The translations under genes were made by a program, and so were the position numbers. Shown piece by piece: positions 3 to 36,412 of a DNA stretch of 40,972 nt. Source of the DNA: Anaerolineae bacterium (GTDB lineage Bacteria > Chloroflexota > Anaerolineae > JAADDB01); contig WFQT01000188.1 in assembly GCA_015486895.1 (NCBI GenBank), positions 1-40,972 of the forward strand, read 5' to 3'. Numbering within the stretch: position 1 is the stretch's first letter; every line of letters begins with the position of its first letter. Below the pieces are notes generated by a model. It searched no databases. It had not been told where the DNA came from and saw only the letters and a list, made by a program, of their open reading frames with translations.

Positions 3-638
3 GGAGGTAGTGGGGATGCGCTTCCTCTTAAGTTGGGTAAGAACACTATCGGCCGTCAAGATGACAATGATGTTACGCTGCGCGATTCGACAGTTTCCCG
101 ACATCATGCGGTGATTTTTGTGGAGCGCGATGTGGTGACCCTGCAGGATTTGGGTTCCAGTAACGGGACTTTTGTGAACAACCAGCGTTTGAGCAAAGTG
201 CGGAGCCGGGTAGAGCCGGGTGTCAATATCCGTTTTGGAAATCAAGAATTTACTCTCCGCAAAGACAACGCGAGTAGTGATGATACGGTTCATCAGAGTA
301 ACAAAAGAGAGCCCCAAAACGGATCCGCCCAGGCTAAACAAGTTGATTCTAAGCAACTGAAACCGGCCTTTCTGGTTGATGGTGGAGGGCAGCGCATACC
401 TTTGCAGAAAAAAGAAACGAAAATCGGCCGTAGTCCGGCTAACGATGTAACACTGAATGACCAGGCTGTTTCCACAAATCATGCTGTCATTACTGTGAAG
501 GAGGGGAAGTTTGTCCTGCGCGATTTGGATTCGACTAATGGCACCATAGTCAACGGAGCGAAAGTAAAGGAACATGTATTGCAGCAAGATGACATAATCC
601 AGTTTGGCAAAGCGAAATATGTATTCCAGGTCGGTTGA
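3..638 (+). CDS. Tandem double-FHA domain protein, 5' end outside the window
   Basis: Two FHA motif sets: IGR..TVSRHHA..LQDLGSSNGT and IGR..AVSTNHA..LRDLDSTNGT. The frame is open back to base 3 (GGSGDALPLKLGKNTIGR, paralleling GGGQRIPLQKKETKIGR of FHA2), so TTG33 is probably not the start. Confidence 0.9.
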   Translation, partial: GGSGDALPLKLGKNTIGRQDDNDVTLRDSTVSRHHAVIFVERDVVTLQDLGSSNGTFVNNQRLSKVRSRVEPGVNIRFGNQEFTLRKDNASSDDTVHQSNKREPQNGSAQAKQVDSKQLKPAFLVDGGGQRIPLQKKETKIGRSPANDVTLNDQAVSTNHAVITVKEGKFVLRDLDSTNGTIVNGAKVKEHVLQQDDIIQFGKAKYVFQVG

Positions 639-693
639 GTACGCTCGCTGACATTTTAGCCACCATCAGATTCGTGATAGGAGGAAAAGAAAC

Positions 694-3642
694 ATGAGAA
701 AGTCATTCTCTCAGTATTATTGGAGTGTTGTTGTCCTCATTGCAACACTTGTGATCCTCGTGTTGATAGGAGGGTATACCACGCTGGCTATGACAGAGAA
801 AGCAGACGCCGCAACTACAATGTTCAAGCCGAAGCCTCTAGATGTTATTCTGGTTGTTGACCAATCGCACAGTATGTTCACGATTAGCGATCCTTCCCAG
901 GTCATTACAGATACTCAGGGGAGGCCCATTGGTGAGATTCCTCCTGTGCGGCAATTGGCAGCTCAGTATTTCGTGGATTATTTGCATGTGGATCAAATAC
1001 CCAGTGTCGAAAACAGGGTTGGCATAATTTACTTTGGAGAGAAACCCGAACTGGCAGCTCCCTTGACAAATGTTTCCACGGATCAAAATGTCAGACACTT
1101 GCACGATATATTAGAGGCAACACCCCCTGATTTGCATTGGACAGACACAGATGCCGCTTTCGAAGAAGCTTATAAGGTACTATTCAAGAGTCCCCAAGCC
1201 GATTCCAGCCACGAACACGTGGTTGTGTTCCTCTCTGACGGGCTTCCCCAGATTATCTATCCCTGGCCCATCGAAGACAGCACGAAAAAAGATGGGACGC
1301 CATTAGAGGGTAAGAGAAGTTACTATCTGCGTCACAAGAGGATTATCGAGCAGTTCAGTGAGAAAGGGGTGAGGTTTTATACTATTATTATTGCCAAGAC
1401 CGGATATGTGGATTACAACGACAAAGCACTCCAAGACCCTAAAATGGCCGGGCTTGGTTTCAAGAACTTCGCAAATCTGTGGCAGCAGGCCGCGACCGCG
1501 ACGGGTGGAGATTATTTCCGCTTGAGCGTTGGCAAAAATAACAGTCTGAAGCGCTCGGACCTGTTGGCGATTTACCACGCCATTTTGGCCAATCTGCTAA
1601 GTATTTCGCCATTACAGCGCTACCAAGGGGGGGTAACCGCCCCTGACCAGACTGTGCCTATTACAGTCGGTAAATGCCGGAAATTGTTGATTACAGTGCA
1701 GAAGGGCGAGAGTAATACCGAGGTTAGTCTCAAGACACCGGATAACCAGCTCATTCCTCCAACTACGGTGCGATCGACTTATGTGATCTACAAAGTGGAG
1801 AACCCCCCAACAGGGAGTTGGTGGCTTCGTTTCCAGGGCGGGCAGGGGACAAACTACAATGTCAGCCTGGATTGCGCGGATATTACCCTGCAGGCCAGGT
1901 TTCTCTCTCCGGGAAGTAGTTTCCAGCAATGCAAGCCCATGCCTATAGCTGTTAAGCTGGTTTCTGAAACCGGGGAACCTGTGAATGATGCACTGGTGGG
2001 GGTAAATATCCTTCTTCCTGATGGTAGCACGAAATCTTTGGCTTTGGACAATCGCGGACAGGGCTTGTATCAAAAGACATTCACAGAAACTAAGCAAGAG
2101 GGGAAATATCAACTTTCTTTGGAAGGTCATCAAGGAGATAAGATTGCCAAGCGTGAAAAGGGAGTCTCCTTGTTGGCTGTACCTTATTTAAGTCTTATCA
2201 GCCCTAAGTCCGGAATTCAGTTGCCGGGTGGCACTCTCTCCGTTGAGGCCGGGGTGAAAGTTGCGTGCGCATTAGCCTCGGGAGATGCGGATATCAGTAA
2301 CGGGAAGGCTACGGTTCGCACTTACCTGATCAGAAGCGATGGCACTAAAACGGCGCCCATCGAGCTTGTTGACGACGGGCGCAACGGTGACCACAAAGCG
2401 GGCGATGCTGTTTTCACTGGCGCTTTTTCTCAAGTTCAGAAAGGTGCATACGCTTTGGTGGTGGACCTCGCGGTTCCGGCGTTGAACGTTCAAGATCACA
2501 TCAAGGAGCAGATCACAGTAGGGATGCCGCCAACAAAAACACCTACGCCTACGGAGACACCTGTCCCCACAGCTACGCCAACTGCCACGCCGGCAAATGC
2601 CGGCCATTGGGTCGGGAAAAACAACATCACTGTTCGGGCCGGTACAAAGGGAGAAATACCATTACACTTTAACAGTTCGGGCTTGAAAGACGGGCAAGTA
2701 GTGCGCGTGAAACTCACAGGCGTGCCGGCCGGGCTGGCCCTGCATACGGACCGGGTCCAGATCTTGCCGGGGAAGAAAGACACAACTGCAGTACTTCATT
2801 TTTCGGTGGCGAAAGAGTTAGCGCCGGCCAAAGGTAAAAGCAAGAAAGTCTATGCCGGTACTTTAGAGTTGACCTATCCTGATGGCAAGACTAAGCATGA
2901 TCAGATAAGCTTCACAGTCTTGCCGCCGCCTACCTCTCCATGGGCGTATATCATCATTCTGGTAGTACTGTTGGCAATTGTCGGTGGACTACTTGGTGCG
3001 TACGTTTTCGTCCACGGACGTGGCCAGTTGGTTGGCAGGCTGGTATACGATAGTGCACCGGAAGGCACCGACACGTCTGATATTGACTTGTATGGTAACA
3101 AGTACGATCTGACACTGGATGAAATGCCAAGCTATGAAGAGGGAGAGACTATCCCTGAAGCAGAGAGCGACGATAATGACGGTCTTGGTGGGTACGATAG
3201 CTATGAGGAAAACGACAGCGTGGGGCCTCAAGATGAGCCGTTACATGCAACACTGACGTTTTTCGCTCGCCGAGGAAATCAGGAGGCGGTCTTGAAAGTT
3301 ACTGAAAGTAATAAAGCTGTCTCTGTTAACGGCGGTCTGCTAAGTCAAGGAGAAACCAAGAAACTAAATGATGGGGATATCATTGAAGTGGGTAGTTACA
3401 AATTGCACTATGAATATTTAGGTGTTTCCGGAAATGAAGATGAAGGTTGGCAGACAGAAGAAAACGGATGGGATACAGGGGAATACGGGGATTATACTGA
3501 AGGAGATGACACGGGTGAATACAGTGGTGGCGGTTTCGGAGACTCTGACCAAGGAACTGGATACGACACTGGTAGTTCCGGTGACTATGATCAGGGAACT
3601 GAATACGATGACAGCGGAAATGATGGTTACACAGATTATTGA
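694..3642 (+). CDS. Membrane-spanning vWA-domain protein with Ig-like domains, Pro/Thr linker, TM, degenerate FHA-like domain and acidic tail
   Basis: AGGAGG RBS at 679-684. N-terminal hydrophobic segment; MIDAS DVILVVDQSHS..T..VFLSDG; LVDDGRNGDHKAGDAVFTG (choice-of-anchor-X-like); TPTPT linker; TM WAYIIILVVLLAIVGGLLGAYVFV; VNG..LNDGDIIEVG FHA-type end; D/E/G/Y-rich tail. Confidence 0.85.
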   Translation: MRKSFSQYYWSVVVLIATLVILVLIGGYTTLAMTEKADAATTMFKPKPLDVILVVDQSHSMFTISDPSQVITDTQGRPIGEIPPVRQLAAQYFVDYLHVDQIPSVENRVGIIYFGEKPELAAPLTNVSTDQNVRHLHDILEATPPDLHWTDTDAAFEEAYKVLFKSPQADSSHEHVVVFLSDGLPQIIYPWPIEDSTKKDGTPLEGKRSYYLRHKRIIEQFSEKGVRFYTIIIAKTGYVDYNDKALQDPKMAGLGFKNFANLWQQAATATGGDYFRLSVGKNNSLKRSDLLAIYHAILANLLSISPLQRYQGGVTAPDQTVPITVGKCRKLLITVQKGESNTEVSLKTPDNQLIPPTTVRSTYVIYKVENPPTGSWWLRFQGGQGTNYNVSLDCADITLQARFLSPGSSFQQCKPMPIAVKLVSETGEPVNDALVGVNILLPDGSTKSLALDNRGQGLYQKTFTETKQEGKYQLSLEGHQGDKIAKREKGVSLLAVPYLSLISPKSGIQLPGGTLSVEAGVKVACALASGDADISNGKATVRTYLIRSDGTKTAPIELVDDGRNGDHKAGDAVFTGAFSQVQKGAYALVVDLAVPALNVQDHIKEQITVGMPPTKTPTPTETPVPTATPTATPANAGHWVGKNNITVRAGTKGEIPLHFNSSGLKDGQVVRVKLTGVPAGLALHTDRVQILPGKKDTTAVLHFSVAKELAPAKGKSKKVYAGTLELTYPDGKTKHDQISFTVLPPPTSPWAYIIILVVLLAIVGGLLGAYVFVHGRGQLVGRLVYDSAPEGTDTSDIDLYGNKYDLTLDEMPSYEEGETIPEAESDDNDGLGGYDSYEENDSVGPQDEPLHATLTFFARRGNQEAVLKVTESNKAVSVNGGLLSQGETKKLNDGDIIEVGSYKLHYEYLGVSGNEDEGWQTEENGWDTGEYGDYTEGDDTGEYSGGGFGDSDQGTGYDTGSSGDYDQGTEYDDSGNDGYTDY

Positions 3643-3747
3643 TAACCGTGTTCGACAATTACGCTGCCTTTGGGACATGTCATGTAAGTAATGGAGATGA
3701 TTAAGTCATTGTCATAAGATATTCAGCCAAACTACAGGAGGATGAAA

Positions 3748-6507
3748 ATGGCATATTACGATGATGTTGCTGCAGGCGAAGAAGAAGAATTGGCGCCAGA
3801 AGTGACCATGGAATTCCGACCGACATTGATTATTGGCTTGGGTGGTACAGGTCATGAAATATTGGTACGCTTAAAGGCCCGGTTTTTGGACACGTACGGA
3901 GAGAAAATCTCTCACGTCATTAAGTTGATCTCGTTCGATACGGCGGACGAAAGCATTAATGTGGTTTCGGAAAAAGGGCGACTGGTAAGTCTTACCAAAG
4001 ATGTGGAGTTGGTCAACATTGGTCACGTTCCGGTGGGCAGTATTCTTAGAAATTTGGATCGTCACCCGACCATCAAGGCCTGGTTGCCTACCAATCTGCC
4101 GGTGCGCGCTATCACGGCTGGCGCTAAAGCAATCCGCCCTTTAGGGCGGTTAGCGCTTTTCTATCATTACAGCCAGGAGGCGCGCGTCCGTGATCGCTTG
4201 TTGACCTCGATTCGCTCTTTGACGAATATAAAGCTCAAAGGCGAAGTAGGGGAAGGCGCTGTTGTCGCAAAAACGCGAGGGTTGAATGTCTTCATCGTTG
4301 CGTCTGTATGCGGTGGCACTGGAAGCGGTACCTTTATCGATATGGCTTACTTGACCAAAAAGCTCATCGAGAATAACGGCATACAACCAGAATTTTGTTT
4401 CATAAATGGGATGTTGGTACTTCCCCAAGCGTTTGCCATGGTTGCTTCGGATGCCATTATGGCCAATGCTTATGCTTCCCTTCGCGAATTGAATTACTTC
4501 TCGAAAGAGGGTAACTATTATGCGAAGTATCCAGATGGGTTAGAAGTCCAAATTCACAACCGACCGTTTAATATTTGCTATCTCATCGATGCTGTCAATG
4601 AAAATGGTAAGACATTGACCGGCTTAGAGGATTTAGCTCCGATGATCGCTGAGAGTATTTTCCTGCAAATTGGCTCTCAGGTGGGTAAGGCCACGCAAAG
4701 CGTGTTCGATAATGTGAAGAGCCTGGATCGCATGGAGAACGGGGAACCTACAGCATTTAGCAGCTTAGGTACGGCGTCTTTGGTTTTTCCGGCCAAACGT
4801 ATCATTGAGGTCTGTTCGTATCGTTTCGGCCAGGCTTTGATTCGTGAGGCTGTCACGCATGATCCTGACAAGGGAGCAGTGCCGGAGCTTGTACGCCAAT
4901 TCCAAGAGAAAAGTCATGTGCTGCCGAAGGCACTTCTAAGTGATGTGATGCGTGATCCGAAGGGGCGAGAAATCAGGATTGGACTGGAAGCCAGCAAAGA
5001 GATTCGTGACGCTAATCGTGAAGAGGTATTGAAGCGGACTGAATCATTTGTCCAGAATTTCGAAATCCGACGCTTGAATGGCGATTACATGAAATTGGGT
5101 AATAGCAATGCCAAACGCATAACAGCTAAACTACGCCAAGACTTGGTTGCCGAAACGCACAGAATCGTTGATGATCCTCAGCTAGGGCCTGTGCTGGCTG
5201 TGTTGTTCCTGGAAAGGCTGGATACTGAGTTGAAGAAAATGTTGGCTGCACTCGATAAAGAGCGGCAACGACTCAGCGGGCAACTAAATGCCGTAAAGAA
5301 GCAAATCAACGGTGTGAAAGCCGGTTTTACGGCTGCCTTGAATTCGTTTCCATTGGGAAGAGGTGGACGCATCGCCAAAGCTAGAGATGAATATCTCTCG
5401 GTACGGCAAAAACAGTTCACGCTCCAGCTCGAGATCATGAAGCGCAACCTTATTCTCGGCGCTTTGTCAGATTTCGACAGTGAGGTCGCAGAGTCGAGAA
5501 AAGCCGTCGGTATAATGGTCGACAAGTTTAACGCGGTGGCTCACCGTTTCGAGCGGGAGGAAAAGGAAGCACGAAGGGGCGAACGTTTTGCTCAAATGGT
5601 GCTGACAACGGAGATTACCGATGATAAGGACTTGGACCGCTATTATGGCGAACACGCAGGGGCGGTAGCTGAGAATTTCAACCGCTACCTGGAACGGATC
5701 GGCAGCCTTTACGATATAGGAAAGAAAGATGAAATAACCATTGGCAGAAGCATTTTTGAATTCTCGCAAGGTCTGTTCCAGCCTCTCTTCGATATTCATT
5801 TGGAAGACCTGATTCGCGAGAAACGACACGCCATATCGCCAGAAGAGCGGCTGGAAGATTTGCGCACGGATTCAGTGCCATTTTGGAATTATGAGGCTGC
5901 TAAAATGACGGGCGGTGGCGAGATGGAATCCATTCGCGTCATTGGCGTTGAGGACAAGAACACGTCTCTGTATCGGGATGCCATTCGCAAAGGGGAGACT
6001 TTGATTTCCACACGAGATCCCCATCGCCTGACCGTTTTACACTCGAAGCATGGTTTGCCACTCTTCGCATTGCGTCAACAAGACTTTTACGCGAAGAAAT
6101 ACGAAGAACATTTGCGGAAACGCGTCAGTCCTTTGCACCTGTTTCCTGATTTGCCCTGGTTGGAAGGTGAGGAAGCTGCACACCAATGGTTTGCTTTGGG
6201 TCAGGCTTTTGGATTAATCAAGAAAATTGGTGTGTGGTACTACTGTCAGCCCAAAGACAGTTTGGAGGTAGAGGTCAAACTAGATCAAGGATTGCGTCAG
6301 TCATTAGATGCGTTCACTCAAAACCAACAGCTCATTGATGACATCAAAGGACAAATTGAAGCCAAAATCAGGAATATGGGGAACAAGAAAGCTATAGAGG
6401 TTTTGCAGGAATATCAAGACCGCGCTTTGGCTCGAGATCCCGAAGTGCGACAACTGGAGATTCATTTGAAGAAACTGGTTAGGGAATTTGCTAACCAGAT
6501 GGAATGA
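3748..6507 (+). CDS. Tubulin/FtsZ-like GTPase (Tubulin_2/FtsZl1 type) with long helical C-terminal region, predicted active
   Basis: PTLIIGLGGTG (T1), GAKAIRPLGR (T3-like), VASVCGGTGSGTFID (T4 signature, 4312-4329), ANAYASLRELNYF, PFNICYLID. AGGAGG at 3736-3741 favours ATG3748 over ATG3742. Confidence 0.9.
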   Translation: MAYYDDVAAGEEEELAPEVTMEFRPTLIIGLGGTGHEILVRLKARFLDTYGEKISHVIKLISFDTADESINVVSEKGRLVSLTKDVELVNIGHVPVGSILRNLDRHPTIKAWLPTNLPVRAITAGAKAIRPLGRLALFYHYSQEARVRDRLLTSIRSLTNIKLKGEVGEGAVVAKTRGLNVFIVASVCGGTGSGTFIDMAYLTKKLIENNGIQPEFCFINGMLVLPQAFAMVASDAIMANAYASLRELNYFSKEGNYYAKYPDGLEVQIHNRPFNICYLIDAVNENGKTLTGLEDLAPMIAESIFLQIGSQVGKATQSVFDNVKSLDRMENGEPTAFSSLGTASLVFPAKRIIEVCSYRFGQALIREAVTHDPDKGAVPELVRQFQEKSHVLPKALLSDVMRDPKGREIRIGLEASKEIRDANREEVLKRTESFVQNFEIRRLNGDYMKLGNSNAKRITAKLRQDLVAETHRIVDDPQLGPVLAVLFLERLDTELKKMLAALDKERQRLSGQLNAVKKQINGVKAGFTAALNSFPLGRGGRIAKARDEYLSVRQKQFTLQLEIMKRNLILGALSDFDSEVAESRKAVGIMVDKFNAVAHRFEREEKEARRGERFAQMVLTTEITDDKDLDRYYGEHAGAVAENFNRYLERIGSLYDIGKKDEITIGRSIFEFSQGLFQPLFDIHLEDLIREKRHAISPEERLEDLRTDSVPFWNYEAAKMTGGGEMESIRVIGVEDKNTSLYRDAIRKGETLISTRDPHRLTVLHSKHGLPLFALRQQDFYAKKYEEHLRKRVSPLHLFPDLPWLEGEEAAHQWFALGQAFGLIKKIGVWYYCQPKDSLEVEVKLDQGLRQSLDAFTQNQQLIDDIKGQIEAKIRNMGNKKAIEVLQEYQDRALARDPEVRQLEIHLKKLVREFANQME

Positions 6508-6541
6508 AGTGTTCGGCGGCGGTTTTTCTAAGGGTAACTAT

Positions 6542-6620
6542 TACCAGCCCGATTTAATGGCTGTTTTTGAGAATGACCTCCTTGCCAAACAGTAATTTCC
6601 AGCAGAGACTCGGGCTGGTA
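6542..6620. repeat. Perfect 11-bp inverted repeat with a 57-nt spacer between the two tubulin-like genes
   Basis: TACCAGCCCGA (6542-6552) and TCGGGCTGGTA (6610-6620). Confidence 0.6.
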
Positions 6621-6884
6621 GCATTCAGCAATGGGAATTACAGCGACAATTCGGGGAAAGACTGTTATTGATTCAGAACTGCATTAATGTGTGTTGGCTC
6701 TAAAGTGGTTGCTGCAAGCCCATTTTACAGACCATGCGGTTTGAGCCATCATATTTGACGCATGTTCTTGTTTGTGTCTCCAAGAATTTGGTGTATTCTG
6801 AACAACTCGGGCGAGGAATCAGTTTATCAGACGAAATTAGCTTTGGGTCAGACTCCGATGATTGTGGAGAAAAGAGGTGCTGCA

Positions 6885-10067: not shown

Positions 10068-10849
10068 CAGGGTGGTTGTGTATTGTTCGCAGCGGTGAAT
10101 TACAAGAAATTTTGCTCGTTACCAGTCGGCCGTTTCAGTGGGGAGATGATTGGTAAAATGGCATTCTGCTTTTTGCCGACTTATTCTGATACATTGGTGT
10201 TGTCCGGGAGAGATGTAAGGAATCTGCGGAGAACCTACGTAATCAGCGTTCCACTTGACCCAGATTGAGCAGTTACGCTCTCTCAATCTATTAGGGTGAG
10301 AAAAAGATGATGAGGCGAGAGACGGACGCATGTTGGGAAATAGCTCGTTTCCTTTCGCGTCTCCGTGATTGGTCGAGTGCTGTTGACAGGTCTGTTGAGT
10401 AACAGGTTCGACGAATTCGCTAAACAACTAAAGCTCAGCTCTGCTATGTTTGGAGCCTGCCTAAACTATCCATAGAAAATGATTTGACAGGGAAGCAGCC
10501 TGCCAGTTGTGTGTTCGTTGCTTTCGAAGCTGTCTCTGCGCGTTCTGTACTCCTTGCAGCTTCCGTTTCCAGCAGGTGGGTAACCAGTATAGAGCGTCAA
10601 TCAAAATGGGAAAGTAACATTACTTAGGACATTGCTAATATTGCGACATTGTAAGTTTTACTTGTTGAAGCGTCATGGTGGGCTATCAGGTGCATTTTAC
10701 AAGAATAATTGGGGCTGTTACCTTGACTGTGGACGCGAGATGGTGGATATGACCTGATATCGACGGGATAATGCAGGGTTTGGACAAATCGGGGGGCTGG
10801 ATGCTCATTCTTTTTTTCACGCCAAGTGGGCTACGCAGAAGGAGGAATC

Positions 10850-22973: not shown

Positions 22974-22996
22974 TTTCCATAATGGAGGCACTAACA

Positions 22997-25761: not shown

Positions 25762-26892
25762 GTGGAAAAACAGAATGACTCGGCAAAAAAAGAAATTGAT
25801 GAACGCAATACTGCAGCGGACGGAGAACAGGAAAGGGAAGCGAGTGGGGAAATGCCCGAACAGCAACCGGAAGCGGTCGGGAAAAGTTCTGCAGACGGAT
25901 TGACTCAACCGGCCGACGAAGAGACAATAGCTTCGGGCGAAGAAGAATTCGACGCTTTGCTCACGACACCACCACAAATTTCCCCTGAGTGGGGGAAAAT
26001 AGTACGTTCGTTGCTGCTATTTTGGGCTAACGGCGCTCTTTTGGCTATTGTCACGGTCTATTTGTTAGAACAATATGCATCGCGACCTTTTGCCATCCAC
26101 ATTAATTATTCCATCTTAGCGTTAGAGGTTATTTCTGTTCTCGTTCTTGGCTTTATGGTGGGTAGCGCTTGGGGCGGCCCCGGAAGGTTCTCTTTGCTGG
26201 GACTATTCTTGGGATCGATGGTTACTATTCCGGTGGTAAGCTACCTCTTTTTGTTGACGCTGTCACAATTTAAGCATTTGTACGTTTCCGGTCAGGAAGA
26301 CTTAAGCTACATCGTTATTGTCGCAATCTGGATAGTTGTTTTTGGCCTAATTGGCGCTTTGTGGTTGCCGGTAAAGTCACGACGCAGTGCGTTGTTGGCG
26401 CTCCTTCTCATCTTCTTGGCGGCTCTAACCGTCGGTTGGTTTTTCTCTCGAGGTGATTTACAGTTTGCAGCGACAAAGTATCGTATGCTAGACCGAAACG
26501 TACCGGTTCCCTATGCAAATATTTCCTGGACTCCATCGGTGCCCACTCCAACATCGACACCGACCTTCACACCAACGGCTACATGGACACCATCACCTCC
26601 CGTCACAACAATTCCTGCTACCAAATCCGTTTCGCCAAAGGCGGTATTACCTGCGGCCCCGGTTATTATCCAGGTCGGTGGGCACGTGCGGATTGTCAAT
26701 ACTGGCGGCAAGCGGTTGCGCATCAGGGAGAAGCCGAGCACAAGTGCGAAGATATTGTTAGCGGTGGAAGAGGGAAAAACGTTACTCGTTTCCGGTGGGC
26801 CTGTGAATGCTGATGGTTATACCTGGTGGCAAGTGAAACAAGGTTCCATCGTTGGTTGGGCCGCCCAAGACTGGCTCAAGCCGGTGCGATAA
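25762..26892 (+). CDS. Polytopic membrane protein with acidic N-terminus, Pro/Thr linker and C-terminal SH3b domain
   Basis: About five hydrophobic helices; TPTSTPTFTPT; LRIREKPSTSAKIL..GGPVNADGYTWWQV..GWAAQDWL. Confidence 0.8.
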   Translation: MEKQNDSAKKEIDERNTAADGEQEREASGEMPEQQPEAVGKSSADGLTQPADEETIASGEEEFDALLTTPPQISPEWGKIVRSLLLFWANGALLAIVTVYLLEQYASRPFAIHINYSILALEVISVLVLGFMVGSAWGGPGRFSLLGLFLGSMVTIPVVSYLFLLTLSQFKHLYVSGQEDLSYIVIVAIWIVVFGLIGALWLPVKSRRSALLALLLIFLAALTVGWFFSRGDLQFAATKYRMLDRNVPVPYANISWTPSVPTPTSTPTFTPTATWTPSPPVTTIPATKSVSPKAVLPAAPVIIQVGGHVRIVNTGGKRLRIREKPSTSAKILLAVEEGKTLLVSGGPVNADGYTWWQVKQGSIVGWAAQDWLKPVR

Positions 26893-26943
26893 TCAGACCA
26901 GGATCACAGACAGAGATACAAGCAATTTGAGCGGGGAGCGAAG

Positions 26944-28971: not shown

Positions 28972-29151
28972 ATTTGGTAACCGTCATGGCTTTACCACCC
29001 GTCTTGTATAAGGCTATTTCATCTTATATAGAACGACTAACTTCATCTGTTTTAGATTTGCCCCTGGGTTGCGGAACAAGCATTGCAGTGGATAAATGTT
29101 GGCTTTTGTAAAAACGGATTTTGTCTCGGTATTCCTGCCAAGGAGGGAAAC

Positions 29152-30711
29152 GTGCGTGATGATACTACCCTGAGGATAGAAGTAGCTGGATACCAGATTT
29201 TGGAAGAAATCGGCCGCGGTGGCATGGCGGTTGTCTATAAAGCGCTACAAGTAAGCTTGGGACGCGAGGTTGTGCTAAAAGTATTGTTGCCAAATCTTGC
29301 TGCCGATGAGGAATTGGTACAGCGTTTCCAGCGAGAAGCAAAAGCTGCTGCCGCGCTTAAGCACCCTAATATCGTTACGATTTACGATGTGGGGCATGAC
29401 GAAGATTACTACTACATTGCCATGGAATACATCAAAGGTTATTCTTTACAATCCTATTTGCAACGCCAGGAGAAGCTTGATTCAGGGGAGGCTTTGCACA
29501 TTTTGCGCGACATCGCCTTTGCTTTGGACTACGCACACGATCATGGCTTTGTGCACCGCGATGTCAAGCCAAGTAACGTTCTGATAGAGGCAGAGACAGG
29601 TCGTGCTGTTTTGACAGATTTCGGTGTGGTAAAAGCTATCAGCGATGCAACACGACGTCTAACGCACACGGGCGCATTCATTGGCACCGTTCATTATGCT
29701 GCGCCGGAGCAGATACAGGGACATGAAATTGACCAGCGCGCTGATCTTTACGCTTTGGGCGTCATGGCATATGAGATGTTAAGTGGGCATTTGCCCTTCG
29801 AGGGCAATACGTTAACTGTTATGCATGCCCAGGTTTATGAGCAACCTCCCCACGCTACGGAATATAATCCTGAGCTATCACCTCAAACGGATAGCATCTT
29901 GCAGCGCTCCTTGGCTAAAGCCCCCGGGGATCGTTTTGAAAGTGCAGCAGCCTTTGTGGAAGCGCTACAGAACGCGTTTGCTCAACCTTTTTCCGCTCCT
30001 TCTGTTCCTAAGAAGAAATGGCCAAAAAGGAAATGGTCGTTGAGGGAGGCATTCGTTGCGGCTGCAGTGCTATTCGTGGGGACAGTAGTGGCCGCTTTAG
30101 CAGGTGGCCTGATTCCACTACGGCCCGCTTTGCCTACTGCTACGGTTCCGGTTGTCATCACTCAGCCACCTGGGAGCACGCGAACAATGACGCTGACACC
30201 AACATCGAAAGCCTCATCGACATCCCAGGCTGTGGTAGTGAATCCTTCTCCTTCGCCGAGCACTACACTCGCACCTACGGACACGGCGACACCTACACTT
30301 ACTCCTACGCCTACTCTGACGAATACACCGACGGCTACGGCTACGCCCCGTCCGGAAGCAGTGGTGCAGGCAGCCACCTTGAATGTGCGTTCTGGCCCTG
30401 GCACTTTGTACCCGGTGATCGGCAAAGTGCATCAGGGGCAGATTCTTTTGATCAAGGGCAAGAATTCGGATGAAACGTGGTGGCAGATATGGCTGGAAAG
30501 TGGAGCACTCGGTTGGGTCTACAAGAGCCTGGTGGCGTCGCGTGGCGCTATAGCTGTTGTTCCTGTTGTGCGGAATATCCCCACACCACCGCCGACGGCA
30601 ACTGCCACTCCGACGTCCGTGCCGCCGACCAATACGCCTGTTCCGGTGCCACCGCCAACGCCTTTGTCGCCTTTGCCAACGCCCGTGCCCACCTGGACGC
30701 CAAGGCCGTAA
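29152..30711 (+). CDS. Receptor-type Ser/Thr kinase with TM, Pro/Thr stalk and SH3b domain
   Basis: GRGGMAVV, HRDVKPSN, DFG, GTVHYAAPE; LNVRSGPGTLYPVIG..WWQI..GWV; AAGGAGG RBS before GTG29152. Confidence 0.92.
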   Translation: MRDDTTLRIEVAGYQILEEIGRGGMAVVYKALQVSLGREVVLKVLLPNLAADEELVQRFQREAKAAAALKHPNIVTIYDVGHDEDYYYIAMEYIKGYSLQSYLQRQEKLDSGEALHILRDIAFALDYAHDHGFVHRDVKPSNVLIEAETGRAVLTDFGVVKAISDATRRLTHTGAFIGTVHYAAPEQIQGHEIDQRADLYALGVMAYEMLSGHLPFEGNTLTVMHAQVYEQPPHATEYNPELSPQTDSILQRSLAKAPGDRFESAAAFVEALQNAFAQPFSAPSVPKKKWPKRKWSLREAFVAAAVLFVGTVVAALAGGLIPLRPALPTATVPVVITQPPGSTRTMTLTPTSKASSTSQAVVVNPSPSPSTTLAPTDTATPTLTPTPTLTNTPTATATPRPEAVVQAATLNVRSGPGTLYPVIGKVHQGQILLIKGKNSDETWWQIWLESGALGWVYKSLVASRGAIAVVPVVRNIPTPPPTATATPTSVPPTNTPVPVPPPTPLSPLPTPVPTWTPRP

Positions 30712-30765
30712 GCCCATTCTTGCGTTTGTGTCTGGGGTGGGAAGTTGCGAAGGAGGAGATTCGAT

Positions 30766-33700
30766 ATGCCAAGACTGAACCGATGGTTCTTGATAGCACT
30801 GATGTTAGGCCTGTGGGTGACCGTTCTGTTTCATTGTGCCATGCCCGGGGAAGATCGAGCGGTGGCTGCGCCCGCTGTGCCAACGGGTGAGACAAGGTTG
30901 ACGTCCGATATGGGGACGCCGCTGCCTGGCCTCTTACCCCAATGGCCCGTCACGACAAATGGACGAGCACCTTTTATGCCGACGGCGGGGAAGATGCGTG
31001 GACAATCTACCGGCGCTCAGGTCAGCACGCCGTATCACTATTTTCTTTTTTCGATCGGCGCCCAGCCTCCGGTGGGGCAATTTGACTATCCCTGCGGCGT
31101 AGCCGTTGCTCCCGACGGCTCTATTTATGTGGTGGATAGCGGGAACAACCGCATCCAGCATTTCAGCGCCAACGGTACTTTCTTGGCTACATGGGGCTCC
31201 CTGGGTTCCAGCGATGGGAAGCTCGATCACCCTGCCGGAGTGGCTGTTGCTTCGGACGGCTCTGTCTACGTAGCCGATAGCGGGAACAACCGCATCCAGC
31301 ATTTCAGTGCCAATGGCGTGTTTTTGGGCGAATTCGGCTCGTATGGTTCCGGCGGCGGGCAATTAGAGCAGCCGGGTGGTATTGCCGTGGCTCCAAATGG
31401 GACGATCTATGTAGCAGACACTGGCAATCATCGCGTCCAGCATTTCAACGCTACCGGCGATTTCTTGGAGACATGGGGATATTATGGCTCCGGCAATGGG
31501 CAGTTCAATCATCCTGAGGGTATTGCTGCTGCTCCCGACGGCACTATTTACGTCGCAGACACTGACAACCACCGCGTTCAACGTTTCAGCGCCACAGGGA
31601 GCTTCTTGGGAAAATGGGGTGCCCGTGGTGCCAGCGATGGACAGTTCAACCACCCTCGGGATGTTACTGTGGCGCTCAACGGCAGCATTTACGTGGCAGA
31701 CAGTGATAACTTTCGAGTTCAACGCTTTAGTGCTGCCGGGGCTTTCTTAGGAAAGTGGGGATCTCGCGGCTCCGGCAATGGGCAATTTAGCCACCCACGT
31801 GGCATTGCTGCGGGGCCCGATGGCACAGTCTACGTGGCGGATAGTGATAATCACCGCATCCAGCGTTTCAGTGCTGTTGGAGCTTTCTTAGGAGAATGGG
31901 GGTATCAGAGTGCTGACGGTGGGCAGTTTGATCACCCGCGTGGGGTGGCCGTGGCACCCGATGGCACATTCTATGTGGCGGATACTTACAATCATCGTGT
32001 CCAGCATTTCAGCGTCAGCGGGGCTTTTCTGGGGATGTGGGGAAGTGGCGGTTCCAGCATTGGACAGTTAGACCACCCGCGCGGAGTTGCTGTAGCTCCC
32101 GATGGCACGGTATATGTGACGGATACCTACAACCACCGCATCCAACGTTTCAGCGCTACCGGGGTCTTCTTGGGAAAGTGGGGCTCTCATGGCTCCGGCA
32201 ATGGGCAGTTCAACTTGCCATTCGGTGTTGCAGTAGCTCCTGATGGCACAGTTTATGTGGCTGATACTTACAATCACAGCATCCAGCATTTCAACGCTAC
32301 AGGGGTCTTTTTAGGGAAGTGGGGATCCCGTGGTTCTGGCGCTGGACAGTTTGCCTATCCGGATGGTGTTGCTGTGGCGCCCGACGGCACAGTTTACGTG
32401 GCGGATACTAACAATAACCGCATCCAGCGTTTTAGCGCTACGGGGGCCTTCCTGGGGGAATGGGGATACTTTGGGATTGGTGATGGACAGTTTAATTATC
32501 CGGTTGGCATTGCTGGAGCTCCTGACGGCACAGTTTACGTGCTGGATACAAACAACCATCGGATCCAGCATTTCAGTGCCATCGGGCAGTTTCTTGGAAA
32601 ATGGGGCGCCGAAGGCGCTGGCGATAGGCAATTCTACTATCCAGATGGCGTTGCTGTAGCCCCCGATGGTAAACTCTACGTGGCGGATAGTGGGAACGAT
32701 CGCATTCAGGTTTTCGGTACAGCCTATCCCAATACCTGGCGCGGTGCATATTTCGCCAACCGCTGGCTTACCGGTGCGCCTGCTTTGATCCAACAAACGT
32801 CCGCCCTTGACTTCGACTGGGGATTTAATTCTCCGGGACATAGCGTGCCCACCAATGATTTCTCGGCGCGCTGGCAGCGCTATGTTTGGTTCGATAGTGG
32901 CACTTATCGCTTTGATATTAGCGTGGATGATGGGGCACGTGTTTGGGTAGATGATAATCTGATCATTGAATCGTGGCGAGATCCTCAAGTTGCTAACTTT
33001 TCTGCGACGGTGCACCTGCTGGCCGGTTACCATCGCATGCGCGTGGAATACTACGAAAGGTCCGGGGGGGCGCATTTCAGATTGACCTGGTCTGTGTTGG
33101 AGACGCCGACAGCGACACCCACGTCTACGTTGACGCCGACCCGCACACTGACGCCCGTTTGTGACTCTTACGAACCCAACGACACACCTGGTGATGCTTG
33201 GGGGCCATTACATTTCGGACAGACATATAGTGCCAAATTCTGTCGTGGTGATAATGACGATTTTTATTTCTTCAACGTGTCGCAGGTCTCTCCAATTAGA
33301 GTGCTTTTGCAGTTGCCGAGCAGTTTGGTGGGACACGTTGGCATGATATTGTACGACAGTGACTTTGATATAATTTGTCAAGCATTGCCGGTGAACGCAC
33401 AGGATTTTTGGCAAACATGTGATATTGGGAGGGTAGGGCGTTATCTGCTGCGGTTGTATCCGGAGACGGGGTATCACGACAATATCCAAACGTATGTGTT
33501 TCAGGTGGATCATGCCTCTCCTTCGCCTACTCCCACACCCACATTTACACCGACGCCGACAGCGACAGCAACGCCCACGGCGACGCCTACGCCCACGGCC
33601 ACGCCTGTTCTGCAGTTCGTTCCCTGGTTGCCGTATCATTACTTCGTCTGCGATGGTTATGAGCCAAACAATAACAGATATAAGAATCCTTGGGGGCCGC

Positions 33701-34011
33701 TCCACTCGGGGTGGCCGTACCGGGCTAAACTGTGTAAGGGCGATGAGGATAACTACTACTTTGACACGACAAGAGCGGAGGATGTGCAAATTCGTTTGCA
33801 ATTGTCAAGTCGTTTGATCGGTCATACTTCCATCTGGCTTTATGCACAGAGTGACTTGAGCAAGACCATTTGTGGAACAGGACCGGTCAAAGCGATAGAT
33901 TACAATGAGACCTGTCATGTTGCCCATGCCGGACGTTACGTCGTGCGCCTTTATACTGACGGCGTTGGAGACAATGTGCATTCGTATACTTTGCGGGCCG
34001 TTTACCGATGA
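30766..34011 (+). CDS. Secreted protein: 12 NHL repeats, PA14 domain and two CDxYEPN (PPC-like) domains
   Basis: Signal peptide; 12x F..P.GVAVAPDG..YVAD..N.RIQ.F; PA14 motifs DFDWG, FSARW, DDGARVWVD; AAGGAGG RBS before ATG30766. Confidence 0.9.
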   Translation: MPRLNRWFLIALMLGLWVTVLFHCAMPGEDRAVAAPAVPTGETRLTSDMGTPLPGLLPQWPVTTNGRAPFMPTAGKMRGQSTGAQVSTPYHYFLFSIGAQPPVGQFDYPCGVAVAPDGSIYVVDSGNNRIQHFSANGTFLATWGSLGSSDGKLDHPAGVAVASDGSVYVADSGNNRIQHFSANGVFLGEFGSYGSGGGQLEQPGGIAVAPNGTIYVADTGNHRVQHFNATGDFLETWGYYGSGNGQFNHPEGIAAAPDGTIYVADTDNHRVQRFSATGSFLGKWGARGASDGQFNHPRDVTVALNGSIYVADSDNFRVQRFSAAGAFLGKWGSRGSGNGQFSHPRGIAAGPDGTVYVADSDNHRIQRFSAVGAFLGEWGYQSADGGQFDHPRGVAVAPDGTFYVADTYNHRVQHFSVSGAFLGMWGSGGSSIGQLDHPRGVAVAPDGTVYVTDTYNHRIQRFSATGVFLGKWGSHGSGNGQFNLPFGVAVAPDGTVYVADTYNHSIQHFNATGVFLGKWGSRGSGAGQFAYPDGVAVAPDGTVYVADTNNNRIQRFSATGAFLGEWGYFGIGDGQFNYPVGIAGAPDGTVYVLDTNNHRIQHFSAIGQFLGKWGAEGAGDRQFYYPDGVAVAPDGKLYVADSGNDRIQVFGTAYPNTWRGAYFANRWLTGAPALIQQTSALDFDWGFNSPGHSVPTNDFSARWQRYVWFDSGTYRFDISVDDGARVWVDDNLIIESWRDPQVANFSATVHLLAGYHRMRVEYYERSGGAHFRLTWSVLETPTATPTSTLTPTRTLTPVCDSYEPNDTPGDAWGPLHFGQTYSAKFCRGDNDDFYFFNVSQVSPIRVLLQLPSSLVGHVGMILYDSDFDIICQALPVNAQDFWQTCDIGRVGRYLLRLYPETGYHDNIQTYVFQVDHASPSPTPTPTFTPTPTATATPTATPTPTATPVLQFVPWLPYHYFVCDGYEPNNNRYKNPWGPLHSGWPYRAKLCKGDEDNYYFDTTRAEDVQIRLQLSSRLIGHTSIWLYAQSDLSKTICGTGPVKAIDYNETCHVAHAGRYVVRLYTDGVGDNVHSYTLRAVYR
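31081..32715 (+). repeat. 12 tandem NHL repeats with 141-nt (47-aa) period
   Basis: First repeat FDYP at 31081, twelfth FYYP at 32632 = 31081 + 11x141. Confidence 0.92.
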
Positions 34012-34428: not shown

Positions 34429-34429
34429 G

Positions 34430-36412
34430 ATGAGAAAGTTAGGTGATTACCGCATTTTGCAGGAAATAGGCTCTGGCGGCATGGCAACCGTTTACCTGGC
34501 CACCGACAGCCGCACAGGACAGAAGGTGGCGCTAAAAGTATTACACGCCGATCTGGCTCAAAACTCGGTTGATGTGGCACGCTTCCGGCGCGAAGCAGAA
34601 GCGGCTATGCGTCTCCAGAACCCTCATATCGTCAAAGTTCTGGATTTTGGCCAGGCAGGCGATCGCTACTTCATTGCGATGGAGTTCGTGCAAGGATTGA
34701 CCATCGCACAGTTGATCAAGAAAAAGGGAAATTTGTCTGTTGAGCAGACTCTGGCTATCGCGTTGCAAGTTGCAGAAGCTCTCGCAGAAGCCGATCGACA
34801 TCACATCGTGCACAGGGATATCAAACCGCAAAATATTATGATCACGGATAGTGGTTTGGTCAAAGTAACTGATTTTGGGATTGCTAAGATTGTAGGGGAA
34901 GAAACGCTGACGCCGGATCGGTTTTTTGCGGGGAGTCCTCGTTATGCTGCACCGGAGCAGGCAGGAGGCAGCCATGTTGACATTCGGGCTGATATTTATG
35001 CCCTCGGCGTCTGCATGTACCAGATGCTGGCGGGCGTGGTGCCGTTCGACGCCGATACACCGTTGGCCATTATGCAACAGCATTTGGAGAAAGACCCAGG
35101 ACCGTTACACAATTATGCTGAAGTGCCGCGTGGTGTTGAGCAATTGGTCATGAAAGCTTTAGCTAAGGATCCAGCACAAAGATTTCAATCGCCGGCAGAA
35201 ATGGCGGGAGCGTTGAAGCAACTGCAGTTGAACGGTGGTGAACCATTGCCGGAGAGCGACGAAACCGTGGTCAGACAATTGCCTAATGTCCGGGAAACAA
35301 ACACGGCCATCGAACCAGAGGAGCAGCGTGAACAAAACGTTCCATCAAGATGGGCAGTAACGCACTTACCGTGGTGGCAGACGCCGCTTGTGAAATTTGT
35401 CATTGGTTCTTCCATTGTGGTTGCTATCCTTTTCTTGTGGCAACCGCCATTTGTTAGGGCGGCTGCGAAAGCCGTACAGAATCTGTTTGGGTCAATGCCA
35501 ACGGCTACGTTGACGCTTACACCGACCGTAACAACGCTTCCCGACAGGATAACATTGAGTTTGCGCGCTGCTGAAATGACACAGGTTACCGTTCAGGTTG
35601 ACGGAACGGACAAATTTGTTGGTGTCATGGCCAAAGGGGAAACGAAAACATGGCACGCACAGTATGTAGTCTCGGTTGAGTCCATTAATGGTGGCGCTCT
35701 ACAAGTGACATTGAACCGCGTGACGCTGGGTACATTAGACCCGGCGAACAGTTACATTAAGCGGACCTGGATATTCGAGAATGGAAAGGTAGTAGAGGCC
35801 CCTCCGGTCGTACCGACCTCGACGCTTACACCGACGCCTACAATAACGCCTCCGACCACGATGACACCTACACCAATACCGACACGGACACCGACGGTAA
35901 CATTTACATGTACGCCGAGTCCGACCGGCACGCCAAGCCCCGCGAACGCCCCACGACCTGTGAATACCCTGCAGTCGGCAAGTACGCCGAGGCCGGCGAA
36001 CACGCCGAGGCCGGCGAACACGCCGAGGCCGGCGAACACGCCGAGGCTGACGAACACGCCGCGGCCGACGAATACGCCAAGACCGACGAATACGCCGCGG
36101 CCAAGGCCAACACCTACGCATGCAGTGGCTAACGCACGTATCTTTGGACATTTCCGGGTAACGGAAGGTGGCCATACCCATGGTTTCACGAAAGGACGCA
36201 TCGAGTTATGGCATCAAAACCGGAAAGTGGGCAATACATCACCAGCCTGGGAGAATGGATATTTCGAGTTTAGTGGCCTGCCTGCCGGTAATTATCAAGT
36301 TATTGCCATTACTATCAAAGGCTATTACTTTGTGACGGGCAATGAACACGATGTTGACAATGTGGAAAGCGGTCACGCATACGGCCCACTGGATTTCGCC
36401 GTGAAGCCGTGA
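34430..36412 (+). CDS. Receptor-type Ser/Thr kinase with TM, RodZ C-terminal-like (DUF4115-like) domain, NTPRP repeats and terminal beta-sandwich
   Basis: GSGGMATV, VALK, FRREA, HRDIKPQN, DFG, YAAPE; LSLRA..QVTVQVDG..F.G.MAKGETKTW.A..V...NGGALQVTLN..LG.L; NGYFEFSGLPAGNYQV. Confidence 0.9.
   Translation: MRKLGDYRILQEIGSGGMATVYLATDSRTGQKVALKVLHADLAQNSVDVARFRREAEAAMRLQNPHIVKVLDFGQAGDRYFIAMEFVQGLTIAQLIKKKGNLSVEQTLAIALQVAEALAEADRHHIVHRDIKPQNIMITDSGLVKVTDFGIAKIVGEETLTPDRFFAGSPRYAAPEQAGGSHVDIRADIYALGVCMYQMLAGVVPFDADTPLAIMQQHLEKDPGPLHNYAEVPRGVEQLVMKALAKDPAQRFQSPAEMAGALKQLQLNGGEPLPESDETVVRQLPNVRETNTAIEPEEQREQNVPSRWAVTHLPWWQTPLVKFVIGSSIVVAILFLWQPPFVRAAAKAVQNLFGSMPTATLTLTPTVTTLPDRITLSLRAAEMTQVTVQVDGTDKFVGVMAKGETKTWHAQYVVSVESINGGALQVTLNRVTLGTLDPANSYIKRTWIFENGKVVEAPPVVPTSTLTPTPTITPPTTMTPTPIPTRTPTVTFTCTPSPTGTPSPANAPRPVNTLQSASTPRPANTPRPANTPRPANTPRLTNTPRPTNTPRPTNTPRPRPTPTHAVANARIFGHFRVTEGGHTHGFTKGRIELWHQNRKVGNTSPAWENGYFEFSGLPAGNYQVIAITIKGYYFVTGNEHDVDNVESGHAYGPLDFAVKP
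35981..36106 (+). repeat. Seven 18-bp tandem coding repeats, (N/S)TPR(P/L)(A/T/R)
   Basis: aacacgccgaggccggcg repeated with progressive degeneration. Confidence 0.9.

Follow-up and report, generated by a model that had tools for sequence, protein, structure and literature searches.

Which process brings genes for two tubulin-like proteins together with an FHA protein, a membrane-bound vWA protein and a row of Ser/Thr kinases, and how much of such a gene row acts as one system? The question is raised by contig C188 (WFQT01000188.1) of a metagenome bin of an Anaerolineae bacterium (Chloroflexota), which was analyzed over its entire length of 40,972 bp and is referred to here as the window. Every long open reading frame (ORF) between positions 3 and 40204 is encoded on the plus strand, and the domains named in a preliminary description of this DNA, i.e., an FHA pair, a vWA domain, a pair of tubulin-like (Tub) proteins, eight kinase loci and SH3b/NHL proteins, are all recovered on this one strand by Pfam (Table 1). 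Comparison with related loci gives a somewhat better than even chance that the window represents the downstream half of a conserved Chloroflexota module, in which Ser/Thr phospho-signaling would control a membrane-anchored pair of FtsZl1 proteins, TubA and TubB. The upstream end of the cluster is missing as the contig edge lies inside the FHA gene.

The FHA-vWA-TubA-TubB cassette and its GTPase-type sister

The loci of TubA relatives were collected from species-representative genomes and from metagenomes, taking the best 80 each of 301 and 234 confirmed relatives, respectively. Locus domains were mapped by phmmer with protein queries from the window and from genome G015, a member of the same class, and samples were checked by Pfam; after removal of 7 duplicates, 56 non-redundant loci with a TubA-class protein remained (genomes, contigs and loci are given by handles starting with G, C and L). 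A vWA gene is located directly 5' of TubA in 31 of the 36 loci with enough flank, and two of the five misses (L036, L056) carry one on inspection. A second Tub gene follows 3' of TubA in 27/39 loci and an FHA gene is found 5' in 16/27, in related loci directly in front of the vWA gene. The typical order is PP2C, kinase, FHA, FHA (at times fused to a kinase), vWA with an FHA-like tail, TubA and TubB. Where at least 8 kb of upstream sequence is available, FHA-type loci encode a PP2C phosphatase in 13 of 14 cases and a kinase in 9 of 14, and the number of PP2C phosphatases in the relatives ranges from one to three. The preliminary description had predicted a fixed FHA-vWA-TubA-TubB core with variable surroundings and had pointed to a PP2C gene upstream, and both are seen in these loci. 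Upon clustering of the ORFs of 17 FHA-type loci, the Tub, vWA, FHA/kinase, PP2C and TPR families alone recur, the TPR genes being located upstream, and no conserved gene was found 3' of TubB. We consider it very probable that the core forms one functional unit.

A second layout consists of vWA, TubA, a TubB without membrane hairpin and a small GTPase (MMR_HSR1 plus DUF697), and it contains no FHA, kinase or PP2C gene. In a maximum-likelihood tree of 53 TubA N-domains (quick search, rows shorter than 600 aa omitted) the deepest branch separates the two layouts cleanly, with a support of 100 in the Shimodaira-Hasegawa-like approximate likelihood ratio test (SH-aLRT). On one side, 21 of 27 rows have an upstream FHA, kinase or PP2C gene, six have uninformative flanks and none has the GTPase; on the other side, 11 of 26 rows have the GTPase, 15 are uninformative and none has FHA, kinase or PP2C. 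The window TubA groups with the metagenome loci L127 and L128 (support 99), with L127 as closest relative (65% identity over the N-domain). The closest named relatives of the window genes are Chloroflexota bins. The distribution of the Tubulin_2 family is patchy: it is present in 11/41 genomes of the relatives set and in none of the eight genomes of the same family.

Two of the related loci have further peculiarities. In L127 (positions 1-1240) an ORF for a kinase C-lobe, a short ORF for a degenerate kinase N-lobe and a small membrane ORF precede the vWA gene, which suggests a broken or rearranged kinase gene at the place where other cassettes have the FHA-kinase fusion. In L036 (positions 2-790; genome G043) the cassette run is headed by a YukD-like ubiquitin-fold protein (Pfam 1.1e-7), a family linked to WXG100 (type VII) secretion.

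Both FHA domains of the protein encoded at the edge of the window are canonical, with the GR, SxxH and NG motifs present. The protein reaches 126.6 bits against the NCBIfam FhaB/FipA model (cut-off 125), and matches to the TagH and SctD models stay far under their cut-offs and reflect the FHA domain alone. The vWA protein follows the layout of a receptor, i.e., an N-terminal transmembrane segment, the vWA domain, immunoglobulin (Ig)-like domains, a Pro/Thr linker, a second transmembrane segment, an FHA-like domain and an acidic, aromatic tail that also occurs in relatives. A simple hydropathy scan places the two hydrophobic segments at residues 12-30 and 742-760, and by the positive-inside rule the vWA domain is predicted to face outward. 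Its metal ion-dependent adhesion site (MIDAS) is intact, as claimed before, with DQSHS at residue 56 and SDG at residue ~181, and the DxSxS and (S/T)DG motifs are kept in all 24 orthologues. The Ig-like region matches the NCBIfam family choice_anch_X (2.3e-8), a YtkA match is weak with 18.9 bits under a cut-off of 25.9 bits, and the FHA-like domain, with an E-value of 0.0033 in the window, reaches 2.6e-5 in the G015 orthologue.

TubA and its paralogue TubB both exceed the gathering score of 27 bits of PF13809 (Tubulin_2), and a search of the whole genome agrees with this; the true start of TubB is probably an internal Met at residue 33 or 42 (position 6858 or 6885). The two partners differ in nucleotide signature and membrane anchor. 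TubA contains the motifs GxGGTG and GGTGSG (CGGTGSG), and this signature is kept throughout the FHA-type clade, whereas the signature of TubB is degenerate (LSDPFTSG in the window) in 18/18 orthologues. TubA has no hydrophobic segment by hydropathy, as is the case for FHA-type TubA proteins generally, whereas TubB has two mid-protein hydrophobic helices at residues 569-587 and 609-627, predicted to form a membrane hairpin. A mid-protein hydrophobic segment is present in 13/13 FHA-type TubB orthologues, in 12 of them as two segments, and in 0/5 GTPase-type TubB proteins. The membrane tethering proposed in the preliminary description would thereby be provided by TubB itself. FHA-type TubB orthologues retain a Y-L-x-D-x-x-N-E motif, and one Glu of D-x-x-N-E is invariant across the TubA and TubB families. 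An assignment of this motif as T7 loop was dropped, because there is no residue-level structural alignment and because the T6-H7 elements were not identified in the family by Makarova and Koonin (2010).

In a Foldseek search with the model of the TubA N-domain, CetZ, FtsZ, TubZ and tubulin rank on top over ~290-300 columns, and 46 chains match with E <= 0.001 (best 1.8e-6). The C-terminal part was modeled with a predicted local distance difference test (pLDDT) value of 79.5 as three helices (35, 52 and 74 residues) ahead of an alpha/beta domain. TubA thereby follows the FtsZl1 layout of an FtsZ-like N-domain, an extended coiled coil and a mostly helical C-terminal domain, although the last domain is of mixed composition here instead of purely helical. 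The C-terminal half retrieves no match at E <= 0.001 in the fold search, and matches to an Smc arm, Vipp1/PspA and BAR proteins were set aside as generic long helices and not read as homology. A prediction of the complex of the TubA and TubB N-domains received a score of 0.00, which counts neither for nor against binding. In a viral collection a single weak relative with 30% identity was found, which says little either way.

Kinase arrays next to the cassette

Eight Pkinase loci are located on the contig, and since these are 8 of the 12 Pkinase matches of the genome within 25 kb of 3.42 Mb, their clustering is far from chance. As described before, they are in different catalytic states: an alignment shows four canonical kinases (K1, K5, K6 and K8, with VAxK, HRD, DFG and APE/SPE), two with DFD replacing DFG (K3, K4), one pseudokinase and one fragment. 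K1 appears active from its motifs; besides the kinase domain it contains an insert of 32 residues, a pair of zinc ribbons and a helical region, and its C-terminus is a polytopic membrane part. K2 starts 18 nt past the K1 stop and is classified as pseudokinase because HWN replaces HRD and the DFG aspartate as well as the activation segment and APE are missing; its C-terminal domain matches no known family. K3 and K4 are tandem duplicates with 84% identity in the kinase domain, visible as a direct repeat with a spacing of 2556 nt and 80-82% nucleotide identity. K5 and K6 share 51% identity, and K7, which ends one codon ahead of K8, looks like a duplication relic as it is closest to K5 (49%) and K6 (47%).

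Table 1. Features encoded in the window with their coordinates and the matches that identify them.
Feature	Position	Strand	Evidence
Double-FHA protein, 5'-open	3-638	+	Pfam FHA, E 5.8e-44, 2 stretches
Two-pass membrane vWA receptor, 982 aa	694-3642	+	Pfam VWA_2 1.1e-8, FHA 0.0033, YtkA 0.0025
TubA, soluble FtsZl1/Tubulin_2 protein	3742-6507	+	Pfam 223.1 bits
TubB, TubA paralogue	6762-10067	+	Pfam Tubulin_2 99.5 bits
K1, Hanks kinase	10826-13630	+	Pfam Pkinase 1.2e-49
K2, soluble pseudokinase	13648-15402	+	Pfam Pkinase 8.4e-17, profile positions 8-149 alone
SH3b membrane protein, 1305 aa	15402-19319	+	Pfam SH3_3 3.2e-21, 3 stretches
Lipoprotein-like ORF, 290 aa, C-terminal transmembrane segment, acidic tail	19834-20706	+	Sequence read
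K3, tail-anchored kinase	20697-22973	+	Pfam Pkinase 3e-46
K4, tail-anchored kinase	23304-25505	+	Pfam Pkinase 3e-46
Polytopic membrane protein, weak C-terminal SH3b	25762-26892	+	Pfam SH3_3 1.8e-5, 25.3 bits, under 27-bit cut-off
K5, single-pass receptor kinase	26944-28971	+	Pfam Pkinase 4.4e-50
K6, single-pass receptor kinase, outside SH3b	29083-30711	+	Pfam Pkinase 6.4e-56; SH3_3 4.6e-8
Secreted protein, 12 NHL repeats, PA14 and two repeated C-terminal domains	30745-34011	+	Pfam NHL 4.5e-121, PA14 2.5e-22
K7, kinase N-lobe fragment, 109 aa	34099-34428	+	Pfam Pkinase 2.9e-11, profile positions 1-80
K8, single-pass receptor kinase	34430-36412	+	Pfam Pkinase 1.7e-50; weak RodZ_C match
CBM9 protein, beyond cluster end	37392-39230	+	Pfam
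IS200-like Y1 transposase gene, beyond cluster end	39593-40204	+	Pfam
NusG-like gene, far contig end	40331-40903	-	Pfam

In each of the 16 FHA-type cassette genomes examined, the contig with the cassette encodes one or more kinases, and in 7 of the 16 it encodes at least four kinase domains. Next to the window's own genome these are G015 (9 Pkinase matches on the cassette contig of 17 in the genome), G042 (7 of 12), G044 (4 of 20), G045 (4 of 15), G047 (5 of 23) and G048 (6 of 10); G043 has 3 of 13, and G041, G010, G046, G049, G050, G051, G052 and G053 have one match each on the cassette contig. Length and coordinates served to check which contigs these are. The impression that the array is unique to the window had been drawn from flanks of +/-10 kb and was overturned by these whole-contig kinase maps. 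The claim that the window holds an unusually elaborated version of the system is not supported, given the comparable clusters in G015, G042, G044, G045, G047 and G048: large many-kinase clusters are a recurrent setting of FHA-type cassettes. In G015, G042, G044, G045 and G048 the kinases form a single run of 40-50 kb that is co-oriented with the cassette. These runs start with an FHA gene, a small NTF2/SnoaL-like ORF, a PP2C gene and kinases including a double kinase of ~1,900 aa, and continue with a second PP2C gene and three TPR proteins before the core is reached.

K1 is a conserved accessory of the cassette. It shows 39% identity over 519 aa, including the insert and both zinc ribbons, with the protein encoded at G015:C2:18985-21930, which likewise has a polytopic C-terminus and whose gene belongs to the co-oriented run of the G015 cassette. 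Two further K1 relatives are encoded within the G042 cluster and another one in G046 on a different contig. Counted by its tail, K1 occurs in 2/41 genomes of the relatives set (the window's own and G015) and in 2/10 further cassette genomes.

Two of these clusters, G015:C2:1249-51599 (L208, L212, L021, L022) and G042:C23:9371-47985 (L209-L211), are co-oriented and encode three FHA proteins, two to three PP2C phosphatases and seven to eight kinase genes, in G015 including a gene with two kinase domains and giant TPR proteins. After the G015 core there is a Kelch/LVIVD propeller and then an NB-ARC STAND protein of 2,406 aa.

Between the kinases of the window several predicted surface proteins are encoded. 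The start of the 1305-aa SH3b protein overlaps the K2 stop; it has four N-terminal hydrophobic segments and a central region without known family, for which a protein atlas search gave no lead (best score 0.75), and residues 1-800 have no relative in the 40 other genomes. The 290-aa lipoprotein-like ORF matches no Pfam, PADLOC or NCBIfam family, and the polytopic protein at 25762-26892 has five hydrophobic segments. The NHL-PA14 gene contains a 141-nt repeat family and the 264-nt repeat D5, and the final domain of its protein is shared with the CBM9 protein (33744-34007 and 38963-39226). A 53-nt element at 19756-19808, built of three direct ATCAGCGT-type repeats, ends 25 nt before the ATG of the 290-aa ORF, and at least 13 further copies are found on other contigs of the genome. 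For 9 of 12 other copies examined an ORF of at least 60 aa begins 11-182 nt downstream, in five of these cases within 25 nt. The genes following the copies are mutually unrelated (epimerase-like, ferredoxin-like, phosphomutase-like, response regulator), and on contig C244 one copy lies ~150-200 nt 5' of a kinase ORF. The bin with this element has a depth of 529 in run X1 and loose ends in three runs. The element could be a shared promoter/leader or a REP-like repeat.

The parent assembly of 3.42 Mb is distributed over 532 contigs (88.7% complete, 4.36% contamination), and none of the contig ends overlaps with the beginning of C188. Contig C500 (L117/L215; 2843 bp), though unlinked to C188, is a candidate for the upstream part that is missing; it encodes an FHA domain together with a PP2C of 270 aa and a membrane kinase running off the end. 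It holds one of the two PP2C_2 matches and one of the four FHA matches of the genome; its PP2C is closest to cassette PP2Cs within the local set, and its kinase is distinct from the single kinase conserved across the family. A further FHA gene on contig C259 has unrelated neighbors. The first 20 kb of the window have a GC content of 0.48 compared to 0.5275 genome-wide, and by its tetranucleotide distance C188 takes rank 76 among the 129 contigs of 8 kb or more, which is ordinary for the bin. A Logan contig from run X1 spans 3001-13334 with zero differences; X1 is possibly the source sample and this contig no independent support. A contig from run X2, which belongs to a separate study, spans 10133-11303 and so bridges the gap into K1, and the X2 reads give no cover past ~13005 except for the repeat 19756-19808. 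The NusG-like gene at the far end has its top outside match (62%) in the same-family genome G004; the gene is multi-copy in this genome, the copies on C524 and C233 being 92% and 71% identical to it, respectively, and the edges of C205 and C208 carry identical ends of 49 residues.

No Rfam family or tRNA was found in the window. The gaps 10068-10825 and 36413-37391 contain nothing longer than short stop-to-stop frames, and a scan for promoters and terminators in 9900-27000 stayed at shuffle level (21 vs. 17.4 and 20 vs. 16.7, respectively), being uninformative on operon limits.

Proposed phospho-gated assembly of the tubulin-like pair and its alternatives

From these arrangements we suggest that Thr-phosphorylation probably gates the assembly of a membrane-anchored FtsZl1 heteropolymer. 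The vWA receptor and the receptor kinases would sense a surface, wall or envelope cue, and the kinases would write phosphothreonine marks onto proteins of the cluster. The canonical FHA domains would read these marks and recruit the soluble TubA to the membrane-bound TubB beside the receptor. TubA would then assemble with GTP on the hairpin-anchored, GTP-blind TubB to form a polymer or scaffold, and PP2C would reset the system by erasing the marks. As no other conserved gene follows TubB, the Tub pair or its polymer would itself be the output, acting as scaffold or in membrane remodeling. For phospho-gated assembly with K1 included, the prospects are slightly better than even. Whether K3-K8 feed into the control of the Tub pair is about evenly balanced. 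The K2-K8 array with its differing membrane and outside domains is a lineage-specific expansion, which most likely adds inputs and is perhaps partly independent. Candidate roles may be conflict/defense, envelope remodeling or cell contact.

Several observations weigh against this picture. As judged from the alignment, the FHA-like domain of the receptor has other residues in place of the Arg and Ser that bind phosphothreonine in canonical FHA domains, and this applies to the window as well as to the orthologues. The model of TubA residues 1-450 has a pLDDT of 71.1, i.e., moderate confidence, and for the FtsZl1 family Makarova and Koonin (2010; PMC2875224) report, as far as the main text goes, that the T6-H7 elements are not identifiable and doubt filament formation. 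No PP2C is encoded in the window itself (Pfam), and no RNA run covering 3742-13630 was found. Large intergenic gaps precede K1 (759 nt), the ORF at 19834 (515 nt) and K4 (331 nt) and follow K8 (980 nt), and together with the repeat in front of 19834 they make several transcription units likely. Within 10.5 kb downstream of TubA a kinase is found in only 3/10 FHA-type loci and never more than one, and kinase pairs or triplets away from Tub cassettes are common in the class. In the fetched loci neither the SH3b and NHL proteins nor the 290-aa ORF have a relative, and the same applies to K2-K8 outside their kinase domains. Furthermore, the six other array genomes fall into one clade of the TubA tree, so that the recurrence of arrays amounts to about two independent lineages with the window included.

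Regarding the biological role, an alternative that is compatible with phospho-gated assembly is an NTP-dependent conflict (anti-invader) system as in Kaur et al. (2020; PMC7159879), in which the kinase/PP2C/FHA module would replace the GAP1-type GTPases as threshold device, and the tubulin-like assembly would act as effector and send the infected cell into dormancy or death. The parts of that paper considered here describe GTPase systems with two tubulin genes and vWA proteins, one of which is fused to YtkA, and, as a separate theme, an active kinase with PP2C and vWA; multicellular lineages, Chloroflexi among them, are said to be enriched in both. The weak YtkA match of the receptor and the use of a GTPase in the sister cassette clade fit to this role. 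The patchy distribution of Tubulin_2 and the variable, defense-typical neighbors, i.e., the NB-ARC STAND protein in G015, a reverse transcriptase in G018, a helicase in L036 and the IS200-like gene in the window, make it plausible. However, the FHA protein, the vWA protein, TubA and TubB match no model of PADLOC-DB 2.0, K1 and K2 match generic kinase models only, and the SH3b protein and the 290-aa ORF match no family there either. Moreover, no nuclease, pore or recognized toxic effector was seen in Pfam scans or in the clustering of locus ORFs, and neither a GAP1-type GTPase nor an FNIII component was found among the ORFs of the window or the scanned G015 ORFs. A conflict role is possible on this evidence and on the whole rather doubtful.

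A second alternative restricts the system to FHA-vWA-TubA-TubB, perhaps together with K1. The genes for K2-K8 and the SH3b, NHL and lipoprotein-like proteins would then be independent receptor-kinase units, which have piled up through duplication within one variable island, with no action on the tubulin pair. The large gaps and the promoter-proximal, genome-wide repeat before 19834 fit to this view, as do the local duplications visible in K3/K4, K5/K6 and the K7 remnant, the scarcity of kinases close downstream of TubA in the other loci and the kinase pairs and triplets elsewhere in relatives of the class. The linkage of kinase and surface genes to the tubulin pair, on which the preliminary description relied, holds in relatives for kinases as such (all 16 genomes) and for K1 with its orthologues in G015 and G042; it is not seen for K2-K8 and the SH3b, NHL and lipoprotein-like genes, which have no orthologues in other cassette loci and whose membership is suggested by position alone. 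Against fully independent units speaks that 8/12 kinase matches of this genome are concentrated here, compared to a single match in 7/8 same-family genomes, which all lack a Tubulin_2 match. Furthermore, arrays adjoin FHA-type cassettes in six other genomes, the flanks of the 26 loci on the GTPase side showed no kinase, and K1 at the head of the array is a conserved cluster member. We regard this alternative as unlikely.

It is improbable that TubA and TubB have an accessory function in cell division or cell shape that is controlled by kinases. In Actinobacteria the FhaA/FhaB-PstP-PknA/PknB cluster acts on FtsZ and wall synthesis. In line with such a function, the FHA protein passes the FhaB/FipA cut-off, K8 has a weak RodZ_C match and the SH3b domains suggest contact to the cell wall. 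However, a canonical FtsZ is encoded elsewhere in the genome (contig C267), Pfam revealed neither RodA nor PBP nor any other division gene in the window, and Tubulin_2 is missing from 8/8 same-family and 30/41 relatives-set genomes, which is unexpected for a core division function. Finally, a chimeric or mis-binned contig, which the fragmentation and contamination of the bin and the deviating GC content of the first 20 kb might suggest, can hardly account for the juxtaposition in view of the identical X1 contig, the X2 contig from another study across the gap into K1, the ordinary tetranucleotide composition, the same-family match of the far-end NusG-like gene and the same cassette-plus-kinase layout in other assemblies.

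Relation to described systems and meaning for the FtsZl1 family

That FtsZl1 genes share operons with genes for vWA proteins, protein kinases and diverged GTPases was already described in 2010 (Makarova and Koonin, 2010; PMC2875224); descriptions of tubulin, vWA and GTPase systems and of a separate kinase-PP2C-vWA theme followed in 2020 (Kaur, Burroughs, Iyer and Aravind, 2020; PMC7159879). The preliminary description had credited the former work with vWA, kinase and FHA neighbors. In its main text vWA is mentioned 11 times and a kinase twice, whereas the word FHA does not occur; the supplements may differ. The window agrees with these FtsZl1 operons, as the main text presents them, in the two proteins passing PF13809, the adjacent MIDAS-intact vWA gene, the kinase neighbors, the many membrane proteins and the canonical FtsZ elsewhere in the genome. 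Beyond that main text go the fixed TubA/TubB pair with one degenerate, hairpin-bearing partner, the cytoplasmic FHA-like domain of the receptor itself, FHA and PP2C genes as a regular part of the loci (Additional files 5 and 6 may list such neighbors), the clean split into kinase-type and GTPase-type cassettes and the clusters that span 40-50 kb and encode 4 to 9 kinase domains. In the literature searched, the supplements of which may hold some of them, the division of labor between TubA and TubB, the FHA-tailed receptor, the regular FHA and PP2C genes, the alternation of kinase or GTPase on the TubA tree and the 40-50-kb many-kinase clusters were not found. No experimental paper on FtsZl1 proteins was found there, and in a survey of 2023 FtsZl1 is still an outgroup of unclear history.

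With the GAP1-N2-type GTPase-centric conflict systems (PMC7159879), as presented in the parts of that paper considered, the window shares two tubulin-domain genes with C-terminal helical regions, membrane association and Chloroflexi hosts. These systems have a vWA-YtkA protein and a multi-transmembrane vWA protein; here one vWA protein with a YtkA match below cut-off and no second vWA gene is present. They also have one or two TRAFAC GTPases with N-terminal zinc ribbons plus a GAP1 component, whereas no GTPase family was found in the ORFs of the window, whose upstream end is missing, nor in 29 ORFs scanned from the G015 and G042 clusters; small GTPases and FNIII are absent from the FHA-type clusters scanned here. 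According to the same parts of the paper, the tubulin theme is limited to Firmicutes and Actinobacteria and does not overlap with the kinase/PP2C theme; here both are combined and FHA is added. The GTPase-type sister cassettes of Chloroflexota are nearer to that description than the FHA-type ones.

Combinations of vWA, FHA, Hanks kinase and phosphatase encoded together are known from other modules, including the FHA-vWA module ArnA/ArnB of Sulfolobus (PMC6509490, PMC12852372), the Esr pathway found in oral Actinobacteria, which combines MoxR, vWA and a kinase/phosphatase pair with an FHA output (PMC13622651), and the Deinococcus operon DRA0331-0334 with vWA, kinase, FHA and PP2C (bioRxiv 10.64898/2026.01.23.701218). 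As far as the parts of these sources considered here go, FHA-vWA complexes or FHA output proteins respond to phosphorylation, and the outputs are transcriptional or act on secretion; a tubulin-like partner is mentioned in none of these parts, and the word tubulin does not occur in the Esr and DRA0331-0334 preprints. The window differs by its tubulin-like partner and by the absence of a MoxR ATPase.

The closest working analogy may be a gate built of kinase, phosphatase and FHA protein. In the H1 type VI secretion system of Pseudomonas, PpkA kinase, PppA phosphatase and Fha1 gate the assembly of a polymer machine at the membrane. The likeness is one of logic, in that a membrane Hanks kinase with vWA, a PP2C and an FHA protein gate a cytoplasmic polymer, and it does not imply membership: in the window vWA is located on a separate receptor, the tubulin-like pair would be the output, and no structural family of type VI secretion was found among the window ORFs by Pfam.

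A farther-reaching reading, to which we give a small chance, sees a bacterial counterpart of a signal-regulated cytoskeleton with the tubulin pair as portable output module. The hairpin-inserted, GTP-blind TubB would be a fixed nucleator or cap for the GTP-competent TubA, similar to gamma-tubulin, and assembly would be licensed only once the receptor-kinase bank and the vWA receptor report a surface event, with the FHA domains reading the phosphothreonine code and PP2C erasing it. The sister lineage would solve the same control problem with a small GTPase, so that the switches would be interchangeable.

Judged by its genes and their conservation, phospho-gated assembly of the Tub pair would belong to a real, conserved system with a specific, testable mechanism. 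The FtsZl1 family thereby gains a defined regulatory setting consisting of a receptor, a set of phosphothreonine writer, reader and eraser, and a two-protein output, in which exactly two features, namely nucleotide signature and membrane anchor, set the Tub partners apart. The alternation of kinase-type and GTPase-type cassettes is a natural experiment on the switching of a polymer. If the polymer is real, the locus would represent a rare case of a tubulin-like filament under receptor-kinase control in bacteria, and it would bear on the origin of regulated cytoskeletons and of membrane remodeling.

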